IMG/VR virus record: IMGVR_UViG_643692022_000005
DNA from: a virus
Lineage: Duplodnaviria > Heunggongvirae > Uroviricota > Caudoviricetes
Direction: 5' to 3' (one strand)
Length of the DNA stretch: 37,716 bases
Position numbers and translations under genes: made by a program. Shown in pieces: positions 191 through 37,716 of this stretch (position 1 is the first letter of the stretch; each line of letters starts with the position of its first letter). The notes beneath the pieces were generated by a model. It had not been told where the DNA came from. It made no database searches and was given only the letters and a program-made list of their open reading frames with translations.

Positions 191-267
<77 letters not shown>

Positions 268-282
268 TTTAGAATCAATCAC

Positions 283-1446
283 TTAAATGCTTCCTCCCGC
301 TTCTGCTTTTCCTTTGTGGGACAAATTTGGGACATCATCGTTAAAAATAGCGTCAATTTGCTTTGCGTGCTCGGTCAGGTGATTAGGTGCCAGGTGAGCA
401 TACCTGCGTACCATTTCGATTGATTCCCATCCTCCCATTTCCTGAAGCACAGATAACGGCACGCCAGCCTGAATAAGCCAGCTCGCCCATGTGTGTCTCA
501 GGTCATGAAAACGGAAATCCTCAATACCTGCTCGTCTGCACGCTGCCTTCCAGGCTCTGCCGTCATCGACTCGCATCTTTCTGACTGCAGGAGTGAGAGA
601 GCCATCAGGCCGTCTTGCTGGCTTTGTGTGTACGAACACAAATTTATGATGGTTGCCTATCTGGTCTCGCAGAACCTTACATGCAGTATCATTCAGCGCT
701 ACGCCAATAGCTCTGTTTGATTTACTGTCTTCCGGGTTGATCCACGCAACACGGCGCTGCATGTCTATCTGTTGCCACTCCAAATTGATAATGTTCGAAC
801 GCCGTAAACCTGTCGCCAGTGCAAACTTGACGACAGACTTTAATGGCTCCGGGCATTCATCAATCAGCCTTTTTGCTTCCTCCTTTTCCAGCCACCGCAC
901 ACGCTTGTTGCGTACTGTCGGTATCTTGATGACCGGTGCTTTCTCCAGCCATTTCCAGTCACGTTCTGCTGCTCTCAGAATGGCTTTCATCAGTGCAAGA
1001 TGCTTTGCCTTGGTGGCAGTGGTGACTGGTTTAGCGACATATTCAGGCACAGGTTTTCCTTTCTTCCTTGCCGCCTCTGCCTTTGCTTTCCATATCTCAA
1101 GGTGATTACGGTTATGCATCCTGCTGACGGCTGAGTAAATCCTTGCCTCAGTAATATCCTTTAGCCGCACACCTTCAAAATGCTCAAGCCAGAATCCCAT
1201 CCGGCCTTTATCTGTATCGAGCGATTTCTTATCTGATTTCTCTTCAATCCAGCGCAAGCATGCTTCTTCAAACGTCACATCTGGAAAATCACCAAGCCTG
1301 TCTACTCGCCAGAGCTCAGCTTTTCGTTTGTCGTGCAGCTCCTGCGCTTGCCGCTTGTCCTTTGTGCCAAGAGATTCCTTAATTCGCTTCCCGCCCGGGA
1401 GCGAGTACGAGGCGTACCATATTTCACCTCTGCGGAAGAGTGACAT
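283..1446 (-). CDS. int: Tyrosine-type site-specific integrase
   Basis: 387-aa ORF starting [14 protein letters not shown], with C-terminal [39 protein letters not shown] (tyrosine recombinase R-H-R-Y signature region); position beside a tRNA. Confidence 0.92.
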
Positions 1447-2340: not shown

Positions 2341-2867
2341 TTGCGTAACTCCGATAACTCGTTAAAGCGTTCCATAAACATCCCGTAGGCATGGCCCGGA
2401 GCCAGTGGAATCACGTTGAACATCTCTGTTGCCGGGATACCTTCCAGTACAGGCCAGAAAGAGCCATCATCAAGCCCGAGATCGCGGCGTTCGGTTGCCA
2501 GCATGATGAGATCGGCATATTTCACGGGCGTACTCATAACTGGGGGTAACCCGTATTTCTCACGGATTACGGCGTCTATTTTTTCTTCCATTTGTTTATA
2601 GTCAGGAAGAAGGCGTTTCAGTGGTGCGGGAATGTCCTGGCAATACGCTTCTGTTGCATCATGCATTAACGCTTCAAAAGCAAATTCCTGCGGCACCAGC
2701 TGGCTGCAAAGAACCGCATGTTGGGCGACGCTGTAGAAGTGCGAAAGATGACCGGCAAAGCGACAGATATTTGAAAGGGAAACCGCGATATCGTTAATAT
2801 CGATGTCGTCTTTATTTATCCTGTCATAATAAAAATGCTTCCCGGAAAAAGTTTTAATAAATGACAT
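2331..2867 (-). CDS. HD-domain phosphohydrolase (YfdR-like 5-prime-deoxynucleotidase)
   Basis: HD-type motifs (H...HD...E: SVAQHAVLCSQL, MHDATEAY). Start placed at the internal ATG (MSFIKTF) preceded by GGAG at 6-nt spacing; the track ORF runs to 2894 from a GTG. Confidence 0.75.
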   Translation of the reverse strand: MSFIKTFSGKHFYYDRINKDDIDINDIAVSLSNICRFAGHLSHFYSVAQHAVLCSQLVPQEFAFEALMHDATEAYCQDIPAPLKRLLPDYKQMEEKIDAVIREKYGLPPVMSTPVKYADLIMLATERRDLGLDDGSFWPVLEGIPATEMFNVIPLAPGHAYGMFMERFNELSELRKCA

Positions 2868-2994
2868 TTTGCTCTCCACGTATATGCGCTGCACCGCGCT
2901 GAATTCTGGTAAAAAGAATCCCTCACCATCCGGCGATTATTGAGTAAATTACGTTTCCATAAATGCCCCCGCAGGGGCATTTGCAGTAATGAAA

Positions 2995-3819
2995 TCAGGC
3001 GGTGAAAGTACCAATAAAGGTTTCTACTTTGCTGTCCTTGAATTTCTCAACAAGCAGATCACGAAATTCGTTAGCCATTTCTTCCTGCACCGCCTCCAGC
3101 TGAATAATGCGCAGAACCAGTACAGGACGATCGCCAGTGATAATACTGAGGCGTAATTTAAACGGACGTTCTTTCAGACCTTCAAACGGAACGCATTTAA
3201 ATTCAAATGTCACTGGCATAATGTCTTTGGTCTTCGCTTCGACAGACTCCATCAGGGAGCGTTTGCCGCTGAAGTCATTATCTTCAAAATCAGCGGTCTG
3301 GTTTGCTTCAATCGTGATTTTACGGACAGCCGCAGCCGCTTTTGTTGCCTGAATAGCGTCACCATTAGCATCAAAGCCCACAAGATAGTCGGCCCAGTCT
3401 TCAATCCATTCTGCCAGTGACTTCTGGGAGTTACGCTCGCCGTTAACAGACAACAGAGCAGAGAACGGTGCTGTCTTTTTCAGTTTGAGTGTGGCGGTGT
3501 TATCTGCGTGACCTGGTTCATCAATAGTACCCAGGTTAAGCACACTGACGGCACGCATATTATCAGCATCGATAAAGCAGCGGGTGCCTTCATCTGCAAG
3601 ATCTTTAGAATAACGGGTAAAGTCATCGATGCTGGCAGTGGAAAGCGCACCACGGAAACGGAAGCGATTTAAATTAAATTTTTCCAGATCATGAATGCGG
3701 AAATTCTCAGGCAATGCCACAGCATCGGCACCAATCTTACTGATAATTTCATTAACACCCTGAGCAGAAATAAGGGCATGGATTTGATTAATTGCGGTTG
3801 CGTCTAAGTTCTGAGACAT
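2995..3819 (-). CDS. YfdQ-like (DUF2303-like) phage protein
   Basis: 274-aa ORF; family assignment recalled from the E. coli CPS-53 prophage, where it sits next to an HD-domain gene as it does here. Confidence 0.6.
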
Positions 3820-3884
3820 AATAAGTCCTCACTATATAAAGATATTCAGTGATGAGATAAATAATCAGTTAATTAAAAACGATA

Positions 3885-4247
3885 TTAACGACCTGCTGCG
3901 CGGAGTTTTCCGTCAGGTTCACCGGCAAGAGTCAGTAACTGTCCCTGGTCTTCCTGCAGAATAGTCAGGCGACCACCGCGATTGACATACATCGGCGTTT
4001 CGGTGGTGTCTTCTTCGGAAATTTTCCCGCGGTTAGTCGGGCGAACATATGAGAGTTTGTGTTTGATTTTCACTCGGTTCTCATCAAACGGTTCGATTTC
4101 CAGGTTGAGCGAGACCTTACCTTTGGTTTTCGTGTTCATCACACCGGAAGCGACTTCACTGAGAACTGCGCCGATTTTGGTTTCAAATACGCCGCCGTCC
4201 AGCTCCCCGATAAATGCCTGCACATCAGTACTGCGTTCGCTAGCCAT
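3885..4247 (-). CDS. Hypothetical phage early protein
   Basis: Start at the internal Met (MASERSTDVQAFIGELDGG) preceded by GAGGAG at 9-nt spacing. The longer track ORF (to 4565) runs through a structured non-coding region and is not credible as coding. Confidence 0.65.
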   Translation of the reverse strand: MASERSTDVQAFIGELDGGVFETKIGAVLSEVASGVMNTKTKGKVSLNLEIEPFDENRVKIKHKLSYVRPTNRGKISEEDTTETPMYVNRGGRLTILQEDQGQLLTLAGEPDGKLRAAGR

Positions 4248-4295
4248 TTTGCTGCTCCTCATCATATCGACCCTGCAAGGTCGGTTAGTTTCTCC

Positions 4296-4384
4296 ACAAA
4301 ACAGAGAAGAACACCTGCGGTGACTGCCGCCCGGATGGATTGGGTTATGAGCCCGTCGTCCGGTGATGCTCTTCTCTGTTTTGT
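4296..4384. repeat. Long perfect inverted repeat (15-bp arms, 59-nt spacer) forming a large stem-loop
   Basis: 4296-4310 ACAAAACAGAGAAGA pairs perfectly with 4370-4384 TCTTCTCTGTTTTGT. By my estimate a 15-bp inverted repeat within 100 nt is expected about 0.003 times by chance in a window this size. Confidence 0.7.
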
Positions 4385-4648
4385 AAAAAGGACGGTACCA
4401 GCCGGAAGCAAGGGTACAAACTGGTACCGCCAGGACTACACACAGCATAAAGTTGTGGTGCCGGGTGCCTCCCGGTGCCTGGCGAAGGTTGCACACCAGA
4501 CGGGTGGGTATCCACAGAAGGTCGACTGTCAGCCTCAACCTTAACCCGCGTGCGCTGAGCCGCATTCACCACAACGCTAAGAATTCTCTCTGGTTGAAAA
4601 TACTTAGCTGTTATGTGCCTGCTTTTAGCCACATCAGGCGAGGTGGAC

Positions 4649-4700
4649 CTGGTTATTCCCCAACAACAAGGATTCGGTTAATCTGGTTATCCCCAACAAC
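4649..4700 (+). repeat. Two direct repeats (CTGGTTAT(T)CCCCAACAAC) upstream of the 4716 gene
   Basis: Copies at 4649-4667 and 4683-4700 differ by one inserted T; the second ends 15 bp before the ATG. Each contains a TTATCCCCA-like core one or two mismatches from a DnaA-box consensus. Confidence 0.6.
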
Positions 4701-4715
4701 GCAAAAGGAAAAGAA

Positions 4716-5150
4716 ATGTCCGGTAATATCTATACGCTGTACAAATCCCACTGTGAAAATGTTGGAAAGTATCGGGGCATTGAAATCAGTGGGGTAGTGT
4801 CATCAGTCGAAATAAGCAAAGTTGAATCAAGGGCAACATTACTTACTCTTCTGGACCTTGTCTTACATGAGCACCGGAAGAAATTCGGCACTCCCTATAA
4901 TCAGTTGAATGGGAAAAAGGCTCTGGTTCACCTTATTCTGATGAAGCATCACTGGATGCCAAAACAGATTAATGAGATGAAATTTGATGAACTTCTTCTT
5001 TCAATTCAGGATGAACTCACACTTGATAAAATAAGCGTAACCGCCCAGAAATTTTTAGATTATCGAGACTGGAGATCACAAATTCATCACTTTGATGATT
5101 TTGACGAAAATGAATGGGATCCTAATTTGTCTGCACAATATCTAAAGTAA
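4716..5150 (+). CDS. Hypothetical protein (AT-rich cargo gene)
   Basis: 144-aa ORF in AT-rich DNA, where a long ORF is unlikely by chance; purine-rich RBS-like stretch (AAAAGGAAAAG) upstream. No recognised motif. Opposite strand to the flanking early operon. Confidence 0.6.
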   Translation: MSGNIYTLYKSHCENVGKYRGIEISGVVSSVEISKVESRATLLTLLDLVLHEHRKKFGTPYNQLNGKKALVHLILMKHHWMPKQINEMKFDELLLSIQDELTLDKISVTAQKFLDYRDWRSQIHHFDDFDENEWDPNLSAQYLK

Positions 5151-5410: not shown

Positions 5411-5593
5411 GTTGCTAACGAATCATCCTGGACTTCATATGCCCCAGGCGGCTACTTCGTGGGCGTCCTGCCTGTTCGTTGTTTTAACATCTTTAAGTTG
5501 TAATTCAGTTGTGGTTTTGAATGTTGTCAACAACTTTATGTGGTTTGAACGAGTAGCCAAGGAGTGCAAGGATTATCAAAAAAAGGAGGTTGT
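5411..5593. promoter_or_regulatory. Divergent promoter/operator-like region (candidate leftward early promoter and rightward cargo promoter)
   Basis: Perfect TTGACA -35 hexamer on the minus strand (top 5525-5530) with a weak -10 about 17 bp downstream; clustered GTTGT/ACAAC motifs like those in the cI-cro intergenic region; AGGAGG RBS at 5583-5588. Confidence 0.4.
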
Positions 5594-6484
5594 ATGGAAG
5601 ACGCGCTTTACGCTTTTAATTACACACAGAACCGGGACAAGTTATTTGCTAACTTGATTAGCATCATTGATGGAATCATTGCAGATGGAGTTGTCCGTGA
5701 AGAGGAGGTTCTTTACTTAGATACATGGTTACTTGAAGCAAAGCAGATTATCAATAATGGAGTTATAAAAAGTCTATCAGCACGGGTGTCGGATATTCTT
5801 GCGGATGGAATAATCACATCAGAAGAACGTGATGACCTTAAAAATAGCCTTCTCCAAATACAGAGGGAAATTCTTGATATCCCTGAAATTGATTTTTACT
5901 CCAAGGATGTAGATGTCCATTTACTTAATGGACTATGTAAAGGATTAATTGCTGATCGGAACTTAACTCAAGAAGAAATAAGATATCTTAATTGGTGGCT
6001 TGAGCAAAATGGAGCTTTGAAGAACAACTACCCAGGAAAAAAACTTTATGCACTTGTAAAGGAAATTCTTAAAGATGGGGTTATTACTGAAGATGAGAGT
6101 TTAACTCTACATAAGGCATTAGTAGACTTCACAGGATGTGACTTGGAAAGTGGGGTGGTGGATGGTTTGGCGACCAGGCTGCCTATTGATGTAGGGGCTT
6201 CGATAGAGTTAGAGGGTAAAACCTATTGTCTTACAGGCACTTTTGTTGCAGGAAAGAGAGCCGTAGTTGAAAATTTGATTAAAAATGCTGGTGGGAACAT
6301 CAGTAGTGGAATTACTCAAAAGTTGGATTTTTTAGTAATTGGGACGCTTTCCTCCCGTGATTGGAAATTCTCAAGTCACGGAAGGAAGATCGAAAAAGCT
6401 ATATCTTATAGGGATGATAATGGTGCAAAACTTAAAATTATTTCTGAAGAAATGCTTTTCGATGCATTACCAAGTTCGCGATGA
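5594..6484 (+). CDS. Protein with four TerB-like helical repeats and a C-terminal BRCT-like domain (candidate defence/exclusion gene)
   Basis: Start at the ATG preceded by AGGAGG (the track ORF begins 30 nt earlier). Four repeats of a D-G-[VI]-[VI]-x-x-E-E helical motif; C-terminus GKTYCLTGTF...AGGNISSGITQKLDFLVIG matches the BRCT pattern of NAD-dependent ligases. AT-rich; 3-prime end overlaps the cI 3-prime end. Confidence 0.75.
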   Translation: MEDALYAFNYTQNRDKLFANLISIIDGIIADGVVREEEVLYLDTWLLEAKQIINNGVIKSLSARVSDILADGIITSEERDDLKNSLLQIQREILDIPEIDFYSKDVDVHLLNGLCKGLIADRNLTQEEIRYLNWWLEQNGALKNNYPGKKLYALVKEILKDGVITEDESLTLHKALVDFTGCDLESGVVDGLATRLPIDVGASIELEGKTYCLTGTFVAGKRAVVENLIKNAGGNISSGITQKLDFLVIGTLSSRDWKFSSHGRKIEKAISYRDDNGAKLKIISEEMLFDALPSSR

Positions 6485-7153
6485 CCAGAATACCCTACCT
6501 ATAACATGAATTCTGGCTCGTCTATCTTCAAAGGTGAGTATTTCATCTGGGTACTCATCTTTGTTGAAGCTTCTAAGAATCAAGCCACCGTCAGGTAAGT
6601 TGATAAGTATTTTAACCCTTAGCAATACACCATCTCGTACGGCATAAAGATCGCCATCACGAATAGGAACGGTTTGAGAAATATCAACGGCAACAAGATC
6701 TCCATTATTGAGAACCGGTAATAAACTGTTCCCCCATATTTTTACGATCTTGGCATTAGATGCACATACGCCAGATTTTCTCAAATCTGCTCTTCTTAAC
6801 GGAAACCAGTCAATAGCTGATTCAACTATTTCAGCCAGACATCCGTTACCTGCCGATAACTCGACATCTAAAACAGGAATGTTTACGAAAATATCGGGGT
6901 CTAATGCGGTGCTTTCTGCTTCTTTTACAACAAGATCAGGTATGGATGCGTTGTCTTCAATACCAAGTTGTAACCACTTTTGTGATACACCTAAAACTTT
7001 TGCAATTTCTTTAATTTTGCGCGGTTGTAGAGTTTCGCCATTCTCTATTTTGGCTACAGATTGTTGTGAAAGTCCAATTTTTTCAGCTAGTTGAGCTTGG
7101 CTCATGCCAGCTATCTCTCTACCTATCTTTAATCGTTCTGCCAGTGTTTTCAC
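6467..7153 (-). CDS. cI: CI-like repressor (HTH plus S24 LexA-like peptidase domain)
   Basis: N-terminal HTH (MSQAQLAEKIGLSQQSVAKIENGET) and a C-terminal S24-like autoproteolysis domain (GNSLLPVLNNGDLVAVD...); divergent from a Cro-like gene; GTG start. Confidence 0.88.
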   Translation of the reverse strand: MKTLAERLKIGREIAGMSQAQLAEKIGLSQQSVAKIENGETLQPRKIKEIAKVLGVSQKWLQLGIEDNASIPDLVVKEAESTALDPDIFVNIPVLDVELSAGNGCLAEIVESAIDWFPLRRADLRKSGVCASNAKIVKIWGNSLLPVLNNGDLVAVDISQTVPIRDGDLYAVRDGVLLRVKILINLPDGGLILRSFNKDEYPDEILTFEDRRARIHVIGRVFWSSRTW

Positions 7154-10864: not shown

Positions 10865-11250
10865 AGCTTATCCTGCCTTTCCCGCCCAGCGTGAACACGT
10901 ACTGGCGACACCCTAACAAAGGGGCGTTTGCAGGTAAGAGCCTGATAAGCGCGGCGGGGCGAAAATTCCAGAGCGCGGCGTGCGCTGCAATAGTTGAGCA
11001 GTTACGTCGTCTGCCGAAACCAACGTCGGCACCTGCTTCAGTGGAGATCGTGTTGTTTCCTCCTGATAACCGGATCCGCGATCTGGACAACTATAACAAG
11101 GCGCTGTTTGACGCCCTGACCCACGCGGGTGTGTGGGAAGACGACAGTCAGGTGAAAAGAATGCTGGTGGAGTGGGGACCGGTTATCCCGGAAGGGAAGG
11201 TCGAGATCACTATCAGTAAGTACGAGAAAACGGCGGGTGCAGCCGCCTGA
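10861..11250 (+). CDS. rusA: RusA-type Holliday junction resolvase
   Basis: 129-aa ORF with the RusA N-terminal signature (MKLILPFPPSVNTYWR) and conserved acidic residues (DLDNYNKALFDAL). Confidence 0.8.
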   Translation: MKLILPFPPSVNTYWRHPNKGAFAGKSLISAAGRKFQSAACAAIVEQLRRLPKPTSAPASVEIVLFPPDNRIRDLDNYNKALFDALTHAGVWEDDSQVKRMLVEWGPVIPEGKVEITISKYEKTAGAAA

Positions 11251-11269: not shown

Positions 11270-12067
11270 ATGAATAATCTGATGGTTATTGATGGTATTG
11301 AAGTTCGTCGTGATGCTTATGGGCGTTACAGCCTGAACGATCTGCACAGGGCTGCTGGTTCTCTGGATAAGCATAAGCCTGCATTCTGGCTCCGCAATGA
11401 GCAAACTGAGCGTTTAATAAGCGAGTTGCAGATTTGCAACTCGGTCAATATAGAGCCAGTTAACGTTATTCGTGGCGGAAATAACCAGGGGACGTATGTC
11501 TGCAAAGAACTGGTGTATGCCTATGCAATGTGGATCAGCCCGTCATTCCATCTGAAGGTGATCCGTACTTTCGACATGGTAACCAGCGCACCGGAAAAAT
11601 TATCCGGACAGGCTGCTGACAAGATGCAGGCTGGTGTGATTCTGCTGGACTTTATGCGCCGGGAATTAAACCTGTCTAACTCTTCAGTGCTTGGTGCCTG
11701 CCAGAAACTCCAGGAGGCTGTTGGCTTACCGAATCTGGCACCGCGCTATGCCATTGATGCTCCTGCTGATGCACACGATGGCTCAAGTCGCCCCACGCTG
11801 TCGCTGAGTGCACTGCTGAGGCAGTATGGTATCCGCCTGACGGCTAATCAGGCATATCACCAGATGGTGAAGCTGGGGATCGTTGAACAACGCGAACGAT
11901 ACAGCCGTACCGCGATTAACAACATCAAAAAATTCTGGTCGCTGACGGCGAAAGGCTGCATGTTCGGCAAGAACATCACCAGTCCTGCAAATCCGCGCGA
12001 GACGCAGCCGCATTTCTTCGAATCCCGATTCCCTGAGCTGTTAAAGCTGCTCGATACCGTTCATTGA
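11270..12067 (+). CDS. KilA-N domain protein (antirepressor-like)
   Basis: N-terminal region (GIEVRRDAYGRYSLNDLHRAAG...YVCKELVYAYAMWISPSFHLKVIRTFD) resembles the KilA-N domain. Confidence 0.65.
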   Translation: MNNLMVIDGIEVRRDAYGRYSLNDLHRAAGSLDKHKPAFWLRNEQTERLISELQICNSVNIEPVNVIRGGNNQGTYVCKELVYAYAMWISPSFHLKVIRTFDMVTSAPEKLSGQAADKMQAGVILLDFMRRELNLSNSSVLGACQKLQEAVGLPNLAPRYAIDAPADAHDGSSRPTLSLSALLRQYGIRLTANQAYHQMVKLGIVEQRERYSRTAINNIKKFWSLTAKGCMFGKNITSPANPRETQPHFFESRFPELLKLLDTVH

Positions 12068-15314: not shown

Positions 15315-15690
15315 GCTGGTTATCGCTGCATTCTTCTTTACTGTCATCGGTTCTTTCATCTGGTCTGCCAACCACTACTACAGCAAATATCAGCACGAAA
15401 AGAAACGTGCTGATGAGGCTGTACAAAATGTTGAATCTGCAACAGCCATTACCCGTAACGTCCTGCAATCACTGCAAATCGTCAATACAGTTATAGAGGT
15501 TAACCAGCATGCAAAACAGCAGATCGCACTGGAGTCACAGAGAACCCAGGAAGATATCAAAGTGGCTGTTGCGGATGATGATTGTGCTTCACGTCCTGTG
15601 CCTGCTGCCGCTGCTGACCGGTTGCGGAAATTCGCGAACGGTTTACGTGAGCGCTCCGGTGGCACCACTGCCAGCCAGCCTGACTTCTGA
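15298..15690 (+). CDS. Rz: Rz-like inner-membrane spanin
   Basis: N-terminal transmembrane segment then a charged, predicted coiled-coil periplasmic region; directly follows the endolysin. Confidence 0.75.
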   Translation: MKLSYKLVIAAFFFTVIGSFIWSANHYYSKYQHEKKRADEAVQNVESATAITRNVLQSLQIVNTVIEVNQHAKQQIALESQRTQEDIKVAVADDDCASRPVPAAAADRLRKFANGLRERSGGTTASQPDF

Positions 15691-17748: not shown

Positions 17749-19478
17749 GCCGGAAATCTTACCCCAACGTAAATGCTGCCAATCAGTATGCCCGGGATGT
17801 CGTGCGCGGAAAGATTGTGGCCTGCCAGTTTGTGATTCAGGCCTGCCAGCGCCATCTTGATGACCTGATGGCGGAAAAAAGTAAGTCGTTTCGTTACCGC
17901 TTCGACAAGGACTTGGCTGAACGGGCCGCCAAATTTATTCAGCTGTTGCCGCACACCAAGGGTGAGTGGGCATTCAAGAGGATGCCCATCACGCTGGAGC
18001 CGTGGCAGCTCTTTGTGATCTGCTGCGCGTTTGGCTGGGTCAATAAAGGCTCCCGGCTGCGCCGCTTCCGGGAGGTGTATACCGAAATCCCCCGTAAGAA
18101 CGGCAAATCAGCAATCTCTGCCGGTGTCGCCCTGTATTGTTTTGCCTGTGATAACGAGTTCGGCGCGGAAGTGTATTCCGGTGCCACGACGGAGAAACAG
18201 GCATGGGAAGTCTTTCGTCCGGCAAGACTGATGTGTAAACGCACACCCATGCTGACGGAAGCGTTCGGGATTGAGGTTAACGCCTCAAACATGAATCGTC
18301 CGGAGGATGGCGCGCGGTTTGAACCGCTGATCGGTAACCCCGGTGATGGTTCATCACCCCACTGTGCGGTGGTGGATGAATATCACGAGCACGCCACCGA
18401 TGCGCTTTACACCACGATGCTTACCGGGATGGGGGCGCGACGTCAGCCACTGATGTGGGCCATTACTACTGCCGGGTACAACATTGAGGGGCCGTGCTAC
18501 GACAAGCGACGGGAAGTTATCGAGATGCTCAACGGGTCGGTACCCAACGATGAACTGTTCGGGATCATCTATACCGTTGACGAAGGCGATGACTGGACCG
18601 ACCCGCAGGTGCTGGAAAAAGCTAACCCGAATATTGGCGTGTCGGTTTATCGCGAATTTTTGTTAAGTCAGCAGCAGCGTGCGAAAAATAACGCCCGTCT
18701 GGCAAACGTCTTTAAAACAAAACACCTCAATATCTGGGTGTCGGCGCGTTCGGCGTATTTCAACCTGGTGAGCTGGCAGAGCTGCGAGGATAAATCACTG
18801 ACCCTTGAGCAGTTCGAGGGGCAGCCGTGCATTCTGGCCTTTGACCTGGCGCGTAAGCTGGATATGAACAGCATGGCGCGACTTTATACCCGCGAGATTG
18901 ACGGTAAAACGCATTACTACAGTGTGGCCCCGCGTTTCTGGGTACCGTATGACACGGTGTACAGCGTCGAGAAAAATGAAGATCGACGGACAGCCGAACG
19001 CTTTCAGAAATGGGTGGAAATGGGCGTTCTGACCGTTACCGATGGTGCGGAGGTGGATTATCGCTACATCCTCGAGGAGGCCAAAGCGGCGAACAAAATC
19101 AGCCCGGTCAGTGAGTCACCCATCGACCCCTTCGGGGCGACCGGGTTGTCACATGACCTTGCTGATGAAGACCTGAACCCCATCACTATCATTCAGAACT
19201 ACACCAACATGTCCGACCCGATGAAAGAGCTGGAAGCGGCAATTGAATCGGGGCGCTTTCATCATGATGGCAATCCCATCATGACCTGGTGTATCGGCAA
19301 CGTGGTCGGCAAAACCATTCCGGGTAACGATGATGTGGTGAAGCCCGTCAAAGAGCAGGCGGAAAACAAAATCGATGGTGCAGTTGCGCTGATTATGGCG
19401 GTTGGCAGAGCCATGCTGTACGAGAAAGAAGACACGCTGTCTGACCACATTGAGTCCTATGGGATCCGCTCGCTTTAA
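17745..19478 (+). CDS. Terminase large subunit
   Basis: 577 aa with Walker-A-like GKS ([11 protein letters not shown]) and a C-terminal nuclease region; overlaps the small subunit stop. Confidence 0.88.
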
Positions 19479-19672: not shown

Positions 19673-20913
19673 TGTTCTTTTCGGGATTATTTCAACGAAA
19701 AAGTGACGCACCGGTGACCACGCCAGCAGAGCTGGCGGATGCTATCGGGTTGTCCTACGACACCTATACCGGAAAGCAGATCAGCAGCCAGCGGGCCATG
19801 CGACTGACGGCGGTTTTTTCCTGTGTCAGGGTGCTGGCGGAGTCGGTCGGGATGTTGCCCTGCAACCTGTATCACCTGAACGGCAGCCTGAAGCAGAGAG
19901 CCACTGGCGAACGTCTGCATAAGCTGATCTCCACGCATCCCAATGGCTATATGACGCCGCAGGAGTTCTGGGAGCTGGTGGTCACCTGTCTGTGCCTGCG
20001 GGGAAACTTTTACGCCTACAAAGTGAAAGCATTTGGCGAAGTGGCTGAACTGCTGCCCGTCGATCCCGGCTGTGTGGTACCGAAGCTTAACAGTAGCTGG
20101 GAGCCGGTCTATCAGGTCACATTCCCGGATGGCTCCACGGATGTACTGAGCCAGGAGGATATCTGGCATGTGCGCACGCTGACGCTGGACGGACTGGTGG
20201 GGCTGAATCCCATCGCCTATGCCCGCGAGGCAATATCGCTGGCGGCAGCGACCGAAGAGCACGGGGCCAGACTGTTCAGCAATGGCGCGGTGACGTCGGG
20301 TGTGTTGCGTACAGAGCAGACGCTGTCAGATCAGGCTTACGAGCGCCTGAAGAAAGATTTTGAGGAGCGTCACACCGGGCTTGGTAATGCTCACCGCCCG
20401 ATGATCCTTGAGATGGGGCTGGACTGGAAGTCGATGGCGCTGAACGCCGAGGACAGCCAGTTCCTGGAAACCCGCAAGTTTCAGCTTGAAGAAATCTGTC
20501 GTCTGTTCCGGGTGCCGTTGCACATGGTGCAGAACACCGATCGCGCCACCTTCAACAATATTGAAGAGCTGGGGCTGGGATTTATCAACTATTCACTGGT
20601 GCCGTATCTGACCCGCATCGAGCAGCGGATCAACACCGGACTGGTTCGAAAAAGTAAGCAGGGCGTTTATTACGCCAAATTTAACGCCGGGGCGTTACTG
20701 CGCGGGGATATGAAGTCCCGTTTTGAAGCCTACGCCACCGGGATTAACTGGGGAATTTACTCTCCCAATGACTGCCGCGACCTGGAAGATATGAATCCGC
20801 GTCCCGGTGGGGATGTCTATCTCACACCGATGAACATGACCACGAAACCCTCCGATGGCAGTAAAGCCGGTAAGCAGAAGGATAACGCCAATGCAGACGA
20901 AACAACGTCTTGA
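19672..20913 (+). CDS. Portal protein (HK97-family-like)
   Basis: 413 aa; GTG start preceded by GGAGG; position after the terminase. Confidence 0.85.
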   Translation: MFFSGLFQRKSDAPVTTPAELADAIGLSYDTYTGKQISSQRAMRLTAVFSCVRVLAESVGMLPCNLYHLNGSLKQRATGERLHKLISTHPNGYMTPQEFWELVVTCLCLRGNFYAYKVKAFGEVAELLPVDPGCVVPKLNSSWEPVYQVTFPDGSTDVLSQEDIWHVRTLTLDGLVGLNPIAYAREAISLAAATEEHGARLFSNGAVTSGVLRTEQTLSDQAYERLKKDFEERHTGLGNAHRPMILEMGLDWKSMALNAEDSQFLETRKFQLEEICRLFRVPLHMVQNTDRATFNNIEELGLGFINYSLVPYLTRIEQRINTGLVRKSKQGVYYAKFNAGALLRGDMKSRFEAYATGINWGIYSPNDCRDLEDMNPRPGGDVYLTPMNMTTKPSDGSKAGKQKDNANADETTS

Positions 20914-21541
20914 TGTACCGCTGAGTCTGAAATCTGTCAGTGACTCCGGTGAGTTTGAAGGGTATGGCTCCGTCTTTGGTGTAAAGGACAGCCACGATGA
21001 TGTGGTGATGTCCGGGGCATTTGCTGCTTCCCTACGGGCGTGGAGTGACAGAAAAGCGTTACCAGCGCTGCTCTGGCAGCACCGCATGGATGAGCCCATC
21101 GGTGTTTATACCGAAATGAAGGAAGACGATGTCGGGCTTTACGTCAGGGGGCGGTTGCTCATTGATGATGATCCCCTGGCAAAACGCGCACATGCACACA
21201 TGAAGGCCGGTTCGTTAACCGGCCTTTCTATTGGGTACGTCCTGAAAGACTGGGAATACGACCGGAGCAAAGAAGCCTTTCTGCTGAAAGAAATTGACCT
21301 CTGGGAAGTCAGCCTGGTGACGTTCCCGTCTAACGACGAGGCGCGGATCAGCGACGTCAAGAACGCACTGGCCCGCGGGGAAATCCCCGAACAGAAAAAA
21401 ATCGAAAGAGTCCTGCGTGATGTCGGACTCTCCCGTACCCAGGCCAAAGCATTCATGGCCGGGGGCTATGGCGCACTGTCCCTGCGCGACGCTGAGGATG
21501 TGGGCTCTGCACTGAATGCACTGAAAAATCTGAACTTCTAA
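20891..21541 (+). CDS. Prohead protease (HK97/U35-family-like)
   Basis: Start placed at the internal ATG (MQTKQRLDVPL); the track ORF begins at 20855. Position between portal and major capsid. Confidence 0.75.
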   Translation: MQTKQRLDVPLSLKSVSDSGEFEGYGSVFGVKDSHDDVVMSGAFAASLRAWSDRKALPALLWQHRMDEPIGVYTEMKEDDVGLYVRGRLLIDDDPLAKRAHAHMKAGSLTGLSIGYVLKDWEYDRSKEAFLLKEIDLWEVSLVTFPSNDEARISDVKNALARGEIPEQKKIERVLRDVGLSRTQAKAFMAGGYGALSLRDAEDVGSALNALKNLNF

Positions 21542-34725: not shown

Positions 34726-35655
34726 ATGCATCGTATAGACACGAAAACCGCGCAGAAGGATAAGTTCGGCGCGGGTAAAAACGGTTTTACCCGTGGTAAT
34801 CCCCAGACCGGCACGCCTGCCACCGATCTGGATGATGACTACTTTGACATGTTGCAGGAAGAGCTTTGTGGCGTGGTGGAGGCATCCGGTGCCAGTCTGG
34901 AGAAGGGGCGGCATGACCAGCTGCTTACTGCGCTTCGGGCGTTGCTGTTAAGCCGCAAAAATCCGTTTGGCGATATTAAATCGGATGGTGCGACTGATGT
35001 GGCACGAAAAAACCTGGATCTGGGTACTGCGGCATTAAAATCCGCTCAGACTTCAGTCAGTGACAGGACTAATGGTGCACTGATGCTTGTTGGTGCATTT
35101 GGTTTTGGTGGAGAGGGGGGAGATTCAGTAATCCGGGATATTACCAACGTTTTCACACTACCGATTGGTAATGAAGGTAATCCGGAACCCTATCAGAACT
35201 ATGTACATCTGAATCTTGCCGGAAATTATTTTTATTCCGCTCGCCTGGCGATAAGTCTGAATGGTACTGATAATCCAAGATTTTTCCTTAAAAATCGTGC
35301 CGGAGATGCCGAAAGTGACTGGATGGAAATTTATACAGCAAGGAATCCTCAACGAACGGTTGCACAACTTACAACAGCGAGAAAGATTTCCCTCTCTGGT
35401 GACGCCAGAGGTTATGCCATGTTCAATGGTGGGGCTGATGCAAATATTGCAGTCACTGTCGCAGACTCAGCAAAAGGTGTTATTAAGCTACGGGAGGGGG
35501 CCGTCTCGACACTTTATGCGTCGAATAATTTTATTTCAATTGATACCGGATTAATGGTTCGTGGTATCACTTTTAGCGCTAACGCACAGAGCGTAAATGT
35601 ACGTCCGCTTCAGATGCTTATTGGCACACAATGGGTAACGGTAGGTTTATCATGA
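34726..35655 (+). CDS. Tail fiber protein
   Basis: N-terminus [47 protein letters not shown] matches the conserved tail-fiber N-terminal domain of Mu/P2-like phages as I recall it. Confidence 0.8.
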
Positions 35656-36191
35656 TGGAAATGAGAAATTTTGTTATTTCTGAGCCTGTTTCAGATGAAG
35701 AAAAGCTACTGGCAGAACTCGGTGCCATTATTCTGCGTGATGAAGAAGGCCGGGAGTGGTACACCTCTCAGCAGTTATTTAAGGACGATACATTCAAGAT
35801 AATGTATGACAGTGAAGGTATTGTGAAATCAATAACCAGAGATGTTTCCACGCTGTTTCCTGTATCGTGCAGTGTGGCAGAGGTTGCCAGTATTCCTGAA
35901 GGTATTGATATTTATGGCGGGTGGGTTTATTCGGACGGTAAGGTATCTGCAAGACAGTATACCCGGAGTGAGCTTATTACCCTGGCTGAGATGGAAAAAC
36001 AAACAAAAATCAGTCAGGCAAATGAATTCATGAACAGCCATCAGTGGGCAGGAAAGGCTGCCATTGGGCGGCTGAAAGGTGATGAGCTTGCGCAATATAA
36101 CTTGTGGCTGGATTATCTGGATGCACTGGAAAAAGTAGATACATCCGGGGTTCCGGATATTCAGTGGCCGACAAAACCAGACACAATGTAA
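35652..36191 (+). CDS. Tail fiber assembly protein (Tfa-like)
   Basis: Start at the ATG overlapping the fiber stop (ATGA); 179 aa directly downstream of the tail fiber. Confidence 0.7.
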
Positions 36192-36567
36192 GCGAAAAAT
36201 AAAAACCGCAGACACGCCGTATGCAGGACGTACTGCGGATTGGCTGGTGAACTTTTGATAGTGCGAGTATTGAATGATTTCCAGCCGTTACTGATTTTAC
36301 GTGCTAATTAGTGAACAAACCACTCGTCAGCAGTCTCCTTGGTATCTTTCTAAGTGTCCAGAACAAAAGTTTAGCTGAATCTTTATCGGCGGCGCGCGTA
36401 ACAGAAAGGCCATCGATGCTACTGGTGCCGACAAATCCGGATTGAATACGTCTAATAAGCTCTGGTTCGGCGAGAATCAGACATACAATTCGACGTTGAC
36501 ATGTAACTATCCTTCAATAAACAAGGCAAACACAGATGTTACACAGACTTTAAGTGTATAGTAAAAA

Positions 36568-36597
36568 GGCGGCATTGCCGCCTTTGTTTTATTTTAT
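36568..36597. terminator. Bidirectional rho-independent terminator
   Basis: Hairpin GGCGGCATTGCCGCC flanked by AAAAA upstream and TTTGTTTTATTTT downstream; overlaps the stop of the convergent acyltransferase gene. Confidence 0.55.
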
Positions 36598-37716
36598 CTT
36601 GTATCTTTTTTCAATTGTATTATACAGGATAGCGGAAAGTATAATTGCTAATGTTATCGCCCCAAACTGCATCAATATAAAATATCTAGCTGATGTTTGC
36701 TCTAGGTTGATAAATTTGCTGTAAGAATTGAATGTAATGTTAAGCGATAACTGATGTACTAAATACAAACTGTAACTTATGATACCAATATTCGATATGC
36801 TTCTTTTAGAGAATATAGACGGCCTGGATGCGATAAACGCTATGAAAAATATTGATGTCGCGCAGAACATTTCGAATTCATATACTTTAAAATCACCAAA
36901 AATCGAATATAAAAAGAGTAATAGCATTACGATCCACAAAGCATATTTCAAATAATTGTTTGCAGGTTTCTTTATGTACGAAGCAATAAACCCTGTCAGG
37001 AAGTATGTCCACATTATTTGTTCGTTCTGATATCCAAGATATATAATTATCAGAGCTAAAGGTATTAAAGATATTCTTAACGGTTTAATAGCAAATGCAC
37101 AAGCAAGAAATGGAACTGCTGCATAATATTTCCATTCGTAAGGTAACGTCCATGTAACAATATTAAGGCTCCAGTCCCATATTGCACCAACCCTAATCCC
37201 ACCGCCCCAGAAACCAAATCCATAAACACTACGAATGACTGTCATTATATCATCAATAGTTTTTATTTCCCCGTATCTCTGGAACATGAAAATTGCAAAA
37301 ACTATTGTAGAAACAACAATGTATGCAGGAAGTAATCTATAAATCCTTTTTTGGAAAAAAGAAATATCGAAAATTCCCTTTTTTATAGTGGCTGAAAATA
37401 AAAAACCTGTTAAGCAAAAGAATATGGATACTCCAAACGCGCCCATTTTTTCAAATGCGTACGCTGGCTGAATATTCATATATGGTGATTTTAATCCTAT
37501 AGCAGCAATTACAGTGTATGAGTGGTTAACGAAAACTAATAGACACGCAACCCCCCTTAAGCCCTCTAAACATAAGTCATTGTGGCTTCCAATAGGGGAT
37601 ATATCAACTATCTTATTAATAAGAAAACAAATAAATGTTGCGAATAAAATAAAAGATGATGCATATATGGTATTGTGAACACTAAGATATGGTAATAAAG
37701 TAGCAAATGTATCCAT
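36589..37716 (-). CDS. Acyltransferase-3 family membrane protein (candidate O-antigen acetyltransferase); 5-prime end at or beyond the window edge
   Basis: 375 aa in the window, about 10 hydrophobic segments, AT-rich; resembles OafA/Oac-type acyltransferases from memory. The ATG is the last three bases of the window, so the true start may lie outside. Confidence 0.7.
   Translation of the reverse strand: MDTFATLLPYLSVHNTIYASSFILFATFICFLINKIVDISPIGSHNDLCLEGLRGVACLLVFVNHSYTVIAAIGLKSPYMNIQPAYAFEKMGAFGVSIFFCLTGFLFSATIKKGIFDISFFQKRIYRLLPAYIVVSTIVFAIFMFQRYGEIKTIDDIMTVIRSVYGFGFWGGGIRVGAIWDWSLNIVTWTLPYEWKYYAAVPFLACAFAIKPLRISLIPLALIIIYLGYQNEQIMWTYFLTGFIASYIKKPANNYLKYALWIVMLLLFLYSIFGDFKVYEFEMFCATSIFFIAFIASRPSIFSKRSISNIGIISYSLYLVHQLSLNITFNSYSKFINLEQTSARYFILMQFGAITLAIILSAILYNTIEKRYKIK

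Follow-up and report, generated by a model that had tools for sequence, protein, structure and literature searches.

Stem-loops with a function in the transcript are known from several phage and bacterial systems, and these offer the closest comparisons for the element described here, a hairpin (hairpin-1) that stands between the yfdQ-like and HD-domain genes of a Caudoviricetes virus (IMG/VR record IMGVR_UViG_643692022_000005; the whole 37,716-nt stretch is referred to as the window). With the terminators of the lambda pL operon (tL2, tL3 type; the likeness is drawn from the general lambda literature) and with A-tract/U-tract terminators, hairpin-1 shares a sense-strand stem-loop, rich in G/C and placed between early-left genes 10–30 nt past a stop codon, as well as an A-rich 5′ flank complementary to a U-rich 3′ flank, a stable tetraloop and a dependence of the downstream genes on read-through. 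Unlike the pL terminators, hairpin-1 has only a short, broken U-tract (UUUAU, with 4 U of 8 in the window), and termination here is predicted. A second set of relatives comprises mRNA-stabilising hairpins: the C(UUCG)G intercistronic hairpins of phage T4, reportedly described by Tuerk et al. in 1988, the REP element in malE-malF and the Rhodobacter puf hairpin. As in these, hairpin-1 is intercistronic, has a C-G pair closing an extra-stable UNCG or GNRA loop, lacks a strong U run and is conserved in structure rather than in sequence; unlike REP, it is single-copy, and the T4, REP and puf elements are not known to have its conserved A/U base. The sib element of lambda, a retroregulation site located past int that folds into a long substrate for RNase III, is likewise a hairpin of the leftward early transcript close to int in a lambdoid phage, but the helix of hairpin-1 has 9–13 bp and lies 1.5 kb upstream of int. 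Finally, as at the boundaries of morons and PeSL-type regulatory cassettes, a stem-loop is located exactly at the edge of a module, here the 1.3-kb yfdP-yfdQ module, that is variably present in collinear phages, although our locus has one junction type, no within-genome repeat and no promoter attached to the hairpin. A further difference from lambda pL is that no N-type antiterminator has been reported for the Shigella phages SfIV and SfV (PMC3851460).

The left end of the window is organised as an integration and early-left region. An integrase gene (283–1446, minus strand) adjoins a tRNA-Arg gene (anticodon TCT; 191–267, plus strand), which is presumably the argW attachment arrangement of KplE1/CPS-53. 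Further genes of the minus strand are, in order of increasing coordinates, a xis-region ORF, a yfdT-like gene (1673–1978), a DUF551/eaE-like gene (1978–2340), the HD-domain 5′-deoxynucleotidase gene yfdR (2331–2867; the HD gene), the DUF2303 gene yfdQ (2995–3819, stop codon at 2995–2997) and yfdP (3885–4247), and a repressor gene with HTH and S24 peptidase domains is found at 6467–7153. The segment 2331–3819 is 99.7% identical to SfIV and 99.1% identical to SfV, and 2700–3200 shares 96% identity with CPS-53/KplE1 of E. coli K-12. DNA matching 2700–3200 is present in 2997 of the 5426 complete E. coli genomes, K-12 with its CPS-53 among them, and the hairpin element is likewise present in Stx2c phages and in serotype-converting phages of Shigella. 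Hairpin-1 stands where the yfdP-yfdQ module meets the HD (yfdR)-eaE-yfdT-xis-int module.

Two stretches between this region and the repressor gene deserve mention in their own right. About 430 nt 5′ of yfdP (4284–4715, minus strand) hold no convincing ORF and are partly conserved, even in relatives without yfdP-yfdQ; they may be the remains of a gene or a long leader, and in the relative L002 PGAP calls the equivalent stretch a frameshifted hypothetical gene. Two plus-strand genes (5564–6484 and 4716–5150) separate the repressor gene from the leftward early genes; the product of one carries a BRCT domain at its C-terminus (Pfam E = 1.4e-6), the second matches PHROG 5286 and has a homologue in E. 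coli locus L002 annotated as an ECs1072-family protein, and the pair, which run opposite to early-left transcription, resemble moron-type cargo.

Hairpin-1 is located at 2961–2982 with the minus strand as the sense strand, and consists of the 5′ arm AAAUGCCCC (2982–2974), the loop UGCG (2973–2970) and the 3′ arm GGGGCAUUU (2969–2961); on the plus strand the same positions read AAATGCCCC-CGCA-GGGGCATTT. The original prediction of a perfect 9-bp GC-rich hairpin between the YfdQ-like and HD genes is confirmed on both counts: there are nine perfect pairs, five of them G-C, closed by a 4-nt loop that on the sense strand is a C(UNCG)G tetraloop, and both flanking genes lie on the minus strand. In transcript order, the yfdQ stop UGA (2995–2997) and a 12-nt spacer UUUCAUUACUGC (the two together spanning 2983–2997, minus strand) lead into AAAUGCCCC-UGCG-GGGGCAUUU, and then follows AUGGAAACGUAAUU (also given as AUGGAAAC); across 2964–2956 the sense strand reads ...GGGGCAUUUAU. 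The 3′ flank AUGGAAACGUAAUUUAC (2944–2960, minus strand) forms, together with the UUU of the 3′ arm, a weak U-rich tail. The hairpin begins 12 nt past the yfdQ stop and finishes 93 nt ahead of the HD ATG. The intergenic gap, initially given as 100 bp, has that length only if the HD gene is read from the in-frame upstream GTG at 2894; measured to the ATG at 2867, the start annotated in K-12, it is 127 nt. This ATG (2865–2867) has a GGAG Shine-Dalgarno sequence (2874–2877), the element occupying 2865–2877 on the minus strand, and TGGAGA is invariant in our alignment.

Folded in isolation, hairpin-1 has a predicted free energy of -15.8 kcal/mol (z = -2.6), and it dominates the local fold on both strands. 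Its core, UGCCCC-UGCG-GGGGCA, is a 6-bp, G/C-rich stem of -12.1 kcal/mol, where a terminator calls for at least 5 bp and a loop of 3–8 nt. There are seven distinct perfect hairpins of at least 9 bp with 3–8-nt loops in the window, as compared to 0.96 ± 1.1 in 300 dinucleotide-preserving shuffles of it: hairpin-1, the terminator at 36565 and five more of 9–10 bp (21203–21226, which sits within the long ORF 20855–21541, 11422–11443, 15389–15414, 19262–19284 and 34772–34793). Since 20% of the shuffles contain one or more hairpins with at least five G-C pairs and a loop of no more than 5 nt, the sequence of the window taken alone is suggestive rather than decisive, and we judge hairpin-1 to be real because of its conservation and covariation.

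To follow the element among relatives we used regions 5′ of HD-gene homologues, taken from one genome per species, together with IMG/VR contigs and annotated phages. Every locus with a yfdQ C-terminus upstream of HD (209/209) has, within 90 nt past the yfdQ stop, a hairpin of 9 bp or more (G·U allowed), with predicted energies of -11 to -21 kcal/mol. In these 209 loci it starts 10–32 nt past the stop (13–35 nt counted from the first base of the stop), close enough for a terminator of the preceding gene; the E. coli, Salmonella and Mixta types have it at 10–12 nt and the Serratia type at 17–30 nt. The arms themselves differ: AAAUGCCCC / GGGGCAUUU in Escherichia and Phytobacter, UAAAUCCCCG / CGGGGAUUUA in Salmonella ST64B and Citrobacter, UAAUUGCCC.. 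/ ..GGGCAAUUA in Mixta and phiNP, AAUAGCCCCC / GGGGGUUAUU and AAUAACCCCG-GCAA-CGGGGUUAUU in further IMG/VR types, and UCAAAUACCCCA-GCAA-UGGGGUAUUUGG in the Serratia type. Aligned with MAFFT, 34 distinct sequences keep the nine core pairs in 99.7% of cells, with compensatory double changes at four of the nine (AU/UA, UA/AU, GC/AU/CG and CG/GC). The observed covariation was reached by none of 500 shuffles, sliding the partner by 1–3 columns lowered pairing to 34–55%, and RNAalifold independently predicts the identical core helix. The comparison indicates that the pairing of the stem is under selection and that hairpin-1 is a real, evolutionarily conserved RNA stem-loop; the stem conservation in related prophages that had been proposed as a check is thereby borne out. 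A functionless chance palindrome would be in keeping with the shuffled windows described above, but it is already refuted by the comparative data, namely the conservation across loci, the compensatory changes and the retained tetraloops, and we give it practically no weight. In Rfam, only a tRNA in the window passes its gathering threshold and permissive thresholds likewise return nothing at hairpin-1, the best sub-threshold match there scoring 15 bits, with 55 needed, on the wrong strand.

Several asymmetries between the strands tell at which level the element is read. One-sided changes in the stem, mostly C to U in the 5′ arm, all give G·U pairs on the sense strand only and amount to A·C mismatches on the opposite strand. 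Tetraloops occur in 138 loci; read on the sense strand, 133 of them belong to the extra-stable UNCG or GNRA classes, and read on the antisense strand, none does. Within a lineage, loops vary at the degenerate positions of these motifs (UGCG, UACG, UUCG; GCAA, GUAA, GCGA). The covariance model scores 64.6 bits on the minus strand and 21.1 bits on the plus strand. The strand-specific G·U pairs, the loop types and the pattern of loop variation therefore point to an RNA structure of the sense strand, and together with the covariation they show that selection acts on the early-left transcript, in agreement with the placement of the element within a polycistronic early transcript in the original prediction. 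A terminator for the antisense strand was considered and rejected (no converging gene, a poorer tail, 21 bits as compared to 65). The covariance model detected no second copy of hairpin-1 in the window or in 69 loci, a scan of the window with up to three mismatches returned one site only, and an exact-pattern scan of IMG/VR found one hairpin copy per contig (n = 120 contigs). We rejected a REP/BIME element, a dispersed repeat and a mobile element, as the hairpin is single-copy in each phage and position-specific.

Hairpin-1 is kept upstream of HD in the absence of an intact yfdQ: in E. coli variants without yfdP-yfdQ, in Enterobacter L014/L309, in L233/L237, both of which have an unrelated gene upstream of HD, and in L197. 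In the Stx phage ArgO145, the DUF2303 gene is followed by a different gene and has no hairpin. As the hairpin stays with HD and is absent after the ArgO145 DUF2303 gene, it constitutes the upstream edge of the HD module, a position that is equally compatible with an insulating terminator and with a 5′-proximal stabiliser of the HD message. The 1.3-kb yfdP-yfdQ module (window 2970–4280) is missing in 19 of the 120 IMG/VR contigs with an E. coli-type hairpin, as well as in some E. coli genomes. Both ends of the deletion fall inside 5′ arms of hairpins (...CTAACC|GCCCC-TACG-GGGGC...), the far one being the hairpin before yfdP, and the junction is seen in L002, L003, L008, L111, L333 and others; these variants retain a 5-bp hairpin, GCCCC-UACG-GGGGC, of -12 kcal/mol.

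This junction bears on whether the palindrome acts in the DNA, as a protein-binding site (one of the functions originally suggested for it) or as a cruciform or recombination hot spot that marks the mosaic boundary. One end of the deletion is placed precisely between the A/U base and the G/C core of the 5′ arm in those 19 contigs, and BLAST identity of several genomes stops at window position 2978, both of which would suit such a feature. However, all variants without yfdP-yfdQ share the loop UACG and changes in the flanks, and they therefore probably go back to a single ancestral event; moreover, the G·U-only changes and the strand-specific tetraloops are unexpected for a site in double-stranded DNA, and the arm sequences vary between families while the structure is kept. 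A DNA-level role is thus very unlikely, and a DNA protein-binding site in particular is disfavoured by the strand asymmetry.

A further trace of recombination may be preserved in the flank. A box, xUGAAGCG(U/A)AAUU, is conserved in 2944–2960 and copies the last codons and stop of yfdQ: the yfdQ end with its stop (AAAGCGTAATTg) recurs 2–3 nt past the hairpin (GAAGCGTAATTc), with 10–11 of 13 positions identical in several lineages and the two copies ~47–50 nt apart. In the window itself (2995–3003 and 2946–2956) the repeat is weak, and it is clearer in L018, L256, L263, L301 and L004; the downstream copy remains where yfdQ is absent. The repeat has the look of a scar left when a hairpin-bearing segment was inserted or recombined. 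Two coding interpretations of this stretch were rejected: a T4 gene-60-like translational bypass across a ~50-nt gap flanked by repeated GCG-UAA, because a stop again follows the landing codon, and a small ORF (2816–2980) starting from an ATG in the 5′ arm, because the ATG is missing in the AAATCCCC, AATTGCCC and AAATACCCC families.

Of the RNA-level functions, a processing site for RNase III had been proposed at the outset. Substrates of this enzyme usually need about two helical turns. Around hairpin-1 the window does hold a longer, imperfect inverted repeat with 22-nt arms that are 73% complementary, and three of the outer pairs are partly conserved; still, the conserved helix has 9–13 bp, short of the ~20 bp called for, and an internal loop of 3 x 8 nt sets off an outer 5-bp helix whose pairs form in only 67% of cells. 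We accordingly regard RNase III processing as highly improbable.

The tail of the hairpin is more equivocal than its stem. A terminator consensus scan of the window, with a rule of at least five T in eight, did not call hairpin-1, and, as first described, no U run follows the full stem; nevertheless, the 3′ arm itself ends in UUU, AU comes next, and the tail past the G/C core, UUUAUGGA, contains 4 U in 8, one short of the rule. Among relatives, at least 5 U in 8 past the G/C core are found in 10 of 17 stem variants. Tail scores, computed with a d'Aubenton-Carafa-type formula, are 3.2–4.2 for the hairpin-1 variants and 3.5–5.1 for canonical terminators of the same window and of a Vibrio phage, the two ranges overlapping. 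Every stem has an A-rich 5′ side and a U-rich 3′ side at its base, as in an A-tract/U-tract terminator. The two outermost A-U pairs are never reversed, leaving the UU at the 3′ base invariant, whereas the next two are: in some families A-U is replaced by U-A (AAUU:AAUU), such that pairing is kept and the U count falls to 3 of 8, which suggests selection on the stability of the stem more than on the U-tract. In the Serratia type, the stem extends across the U-rich stretch, and GGUGAAG follows.

The slot occupied by hairpin-1 holds canonical terminators elsewhere: directly after its DUF2303 gene in Vibrio phage VvAW1, and, in the form of canonical terminator-like hairpins (e.g. AGACCA..UGGUCUUUUUU), in front of HD genes that have other genes upstream. 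An example of an unambiguous terminator in the present phage is the textbook bidirectional one at 36558–36592 (AAAAAGGCGGC-AUU-GCCGCCUUUGUUUUAU), located between the convergent genes 35631–36191 (plus strand) and 36589–37716 (minus strand). The earlier assessment that hairpin-1 is unlikely to be a simple intrinsic terminator is right insofar as the element is not a canonical strong one, but to set termination aside was premature given the A-tract/U-tract architecture, the variants that pass the tail rule and the canonical terminators in the same slot.

Whatever passes hairpin-1 would also have to serve the genes beyond it. Between the hairpin and the HD start, neither a scan nor inspection of the alignment by hand revealed a sigma-70-like promoter, and we conclude that HD is reached via read-through. 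Conserved TTGAAG and TAATTA-like hexamers were rejected as a promoter, their spacing being only 11–13 bp, and so was a sigma-54 promoter at TTGCA, which has no GG at -24. A nut site would combine a boxA with a 5-bp hairpin behind it, capped by a GNRA-like pentaloop, near the early promoter; looking for one by eye, we saw no boxA-like CGCUCUUUA in the spacer, and hairpin-1 lies far from the repressor region (6467–7153). According to its authors, SfIV has no N, cII or cIII homologue (PMC3851460), which agrees better with a weak than with a strong stop. We also searched K-12 end-mapping data sets by gene name and coordinates: no transcript ends at yfdQ or yfdR are listed in the supplementary data of Adams 2021, TERMITe 2025, TRS 2023 and Cappable-seq 2016, the locus being weakly expressed. 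In the K-12 data, Rho terminates transcription in a region of yfdP whose untreated coverage is very low, and since sense transcription is low and Rho stops it there, the lack of K-12 ends at hairpin-1 is uninformative.

Our preferred explanation, to which we assign a probability of roughly 45%, is that hairpin-1 acts as a leaky intrinsic terminator and a 3′-end cap at the module boundary. RNA polymerase would pass yfdQ, and the UGCCCC-UGCG-GGGGCA core would fold while the weak, rU:dA-rich UUUAU occupies the hybrid; a fraction of the polymerases would be released and the remainder would read through, this being the only visible route to transcription of HD and the genes downstream. On the released or processed RNA, the full 9-bp hairpin could then form, with the A-tract paired to the U-tract, and block 3′-to-5′ exonucleases. 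The net result would be a yfdP-yfdQ message that is more abundant and longer-lived than the HD...int message, with hairpin-1 serving as a point of polarity and insulation and not as a full stop.

A possible, if somewhat unlikely, competitor is an element of RNA stability or processing that does not terminate at all, with polymerase reading through essentially always: either a block to 3′ exonucleases that protects the yfdP-yfdQ RNA after a downstream cut, or a 5′ stem-loop that protects the HD message after an upstream cut by RNase E. This possibility, also voiced in the original prediction, is a live one, for selection is seen on pairing and on extra-stable UNCG/GNRA loops and not on the U count, the hairpin accompanies the HD leader in at least four upstream contexts without an intact yfdQ, and an intercistronic site with no strong U run is in line with what has been described for the T4 C(UUCG)G hairpins, for REP in malE-malF and for the ompA 5′ stem-loop. 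What stability alone does not explain is the invariant AA...UU base with its polarity of A on the 5′ side and U on the 3′ side, where G-C pairs would serve better, nor does it account for the canonical terminators that hold the same slot in other contexts.

The spacer between hairpin-1 and the HD gene carries structure of its own. Hairpin-2 (UCGCC-GGAU-GGUGA, 2923–2936, minus strand) shows a compensatory series among relatives (UCGCC/GGCGA, UCGCC/GGUGA, UCACC/GGUGA; alignment pair 68:77 is GC in 12, GU in 3 and AU in 2 cases) and is followed, in 2900–2922 on the same strand, by the invariant boxes GGGAUUC and ACCAAAA. Hairpin-3 (GCG-GUGCAG-CGC, 2886–2899, minus strand) has an NUGCAG loop and lies 9 nt ahead of the HD Shine-Dalgarno sequence; its stem has 3–4 bp in the present phage and 5 bp in relatives. 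In lineages with a long spacer the two hairpins form a block-conserved yfdR leader, and they are absent from Serratia-type leaders. Hairpin-1 might accordingly be the first module of a cis-regulatory HD leader, bound by a host or phage factor or taking part in alternative structures that would govern HD expression. The 127-nt spacer is indeed block-conserved across genera whose flanking genes are ~66% identical, it contains these two additional covarying hairpins along with the invariant boxes GAAGCGUAAUU and GGGAUUC, and hairpin-1 is linked to HD and not to yfdQ. On the other hand, the hairpin-1 loop differs between families (UNCG, GNRA, loops of 6–8 nt), which argues against sequence-specific recognition of the loop; Serratia-type leaders keep hairpin-1 without hairpins 2 and 3, folding predicts no alternative pairing partner, and there is no match to an Rfam family. 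We therefore consider the regulatory-leader reading distinctly unlikely.

Hairpin-3 belongs to a wider family with 5–7-bp covarying stems (at least 14 different ones) and a strand-specific (G/U/A)UGCAG hexaloop, which ends 2–25 nt ahead of a GGAG and a start codon and has no match in Rfam. In the window such hairpins precede yfdP (4268–4283, minus strand), yfdR (2886–2899, minus strand) and a KilA-N gene of the rightward operon (11232–11247, plus strand), the last of them overlapping the end of rusA; in relatives they precede at least three more early genes (L369, L264 near 2783, L260 near 2708, L014 at 2397, L016 at 182 and L026 at 1468). The collected loci have 200 distinct hexaloop hairpins ahead of start codons; 48 of these have the (G/U/A)UGCAG loop, and the next unrelated loop accounts for 7. 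The UGCA core of the loop is self-complementary. The NUG of the loop was rejected as an alternative HD start, being in frame in only three of the five lineages checked by hand. It is conceivable, although rather unlikely, that hairpin-1, the structured yfdR leader and the pre-Shine-Dalgarno (G/U/A)UGCAG hairpins before at least six early genes in both early operons together form a post-transcriptional layer of SfV/KplE1/ST64B-type lambdoid phages, which would be read by a phage or host RNA-binding factor or through UGCA:UGCA loop-loop contacts and would set relative expression within the early transcripts.

Mechanistically, hairpin-1 would add nothing new to the known terminators and stabilising hairpins, and it is an ordinary kind of element. 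The yfdR product is a DnaA-binding deoxynucleotidase, and over-expression of the yfdQ-yfdR-yfdS-yfdT cluster blocks replication initiation (PMC4776307). If hairpin-1 is a leaky stop, it would set the share of early-left transcription that reaches yfdR and then the excisionase and integrase genes; it would be one insulator among those keeping the prophage quiet, and a simple case of within-operon tuning without an N-type antiterminator.
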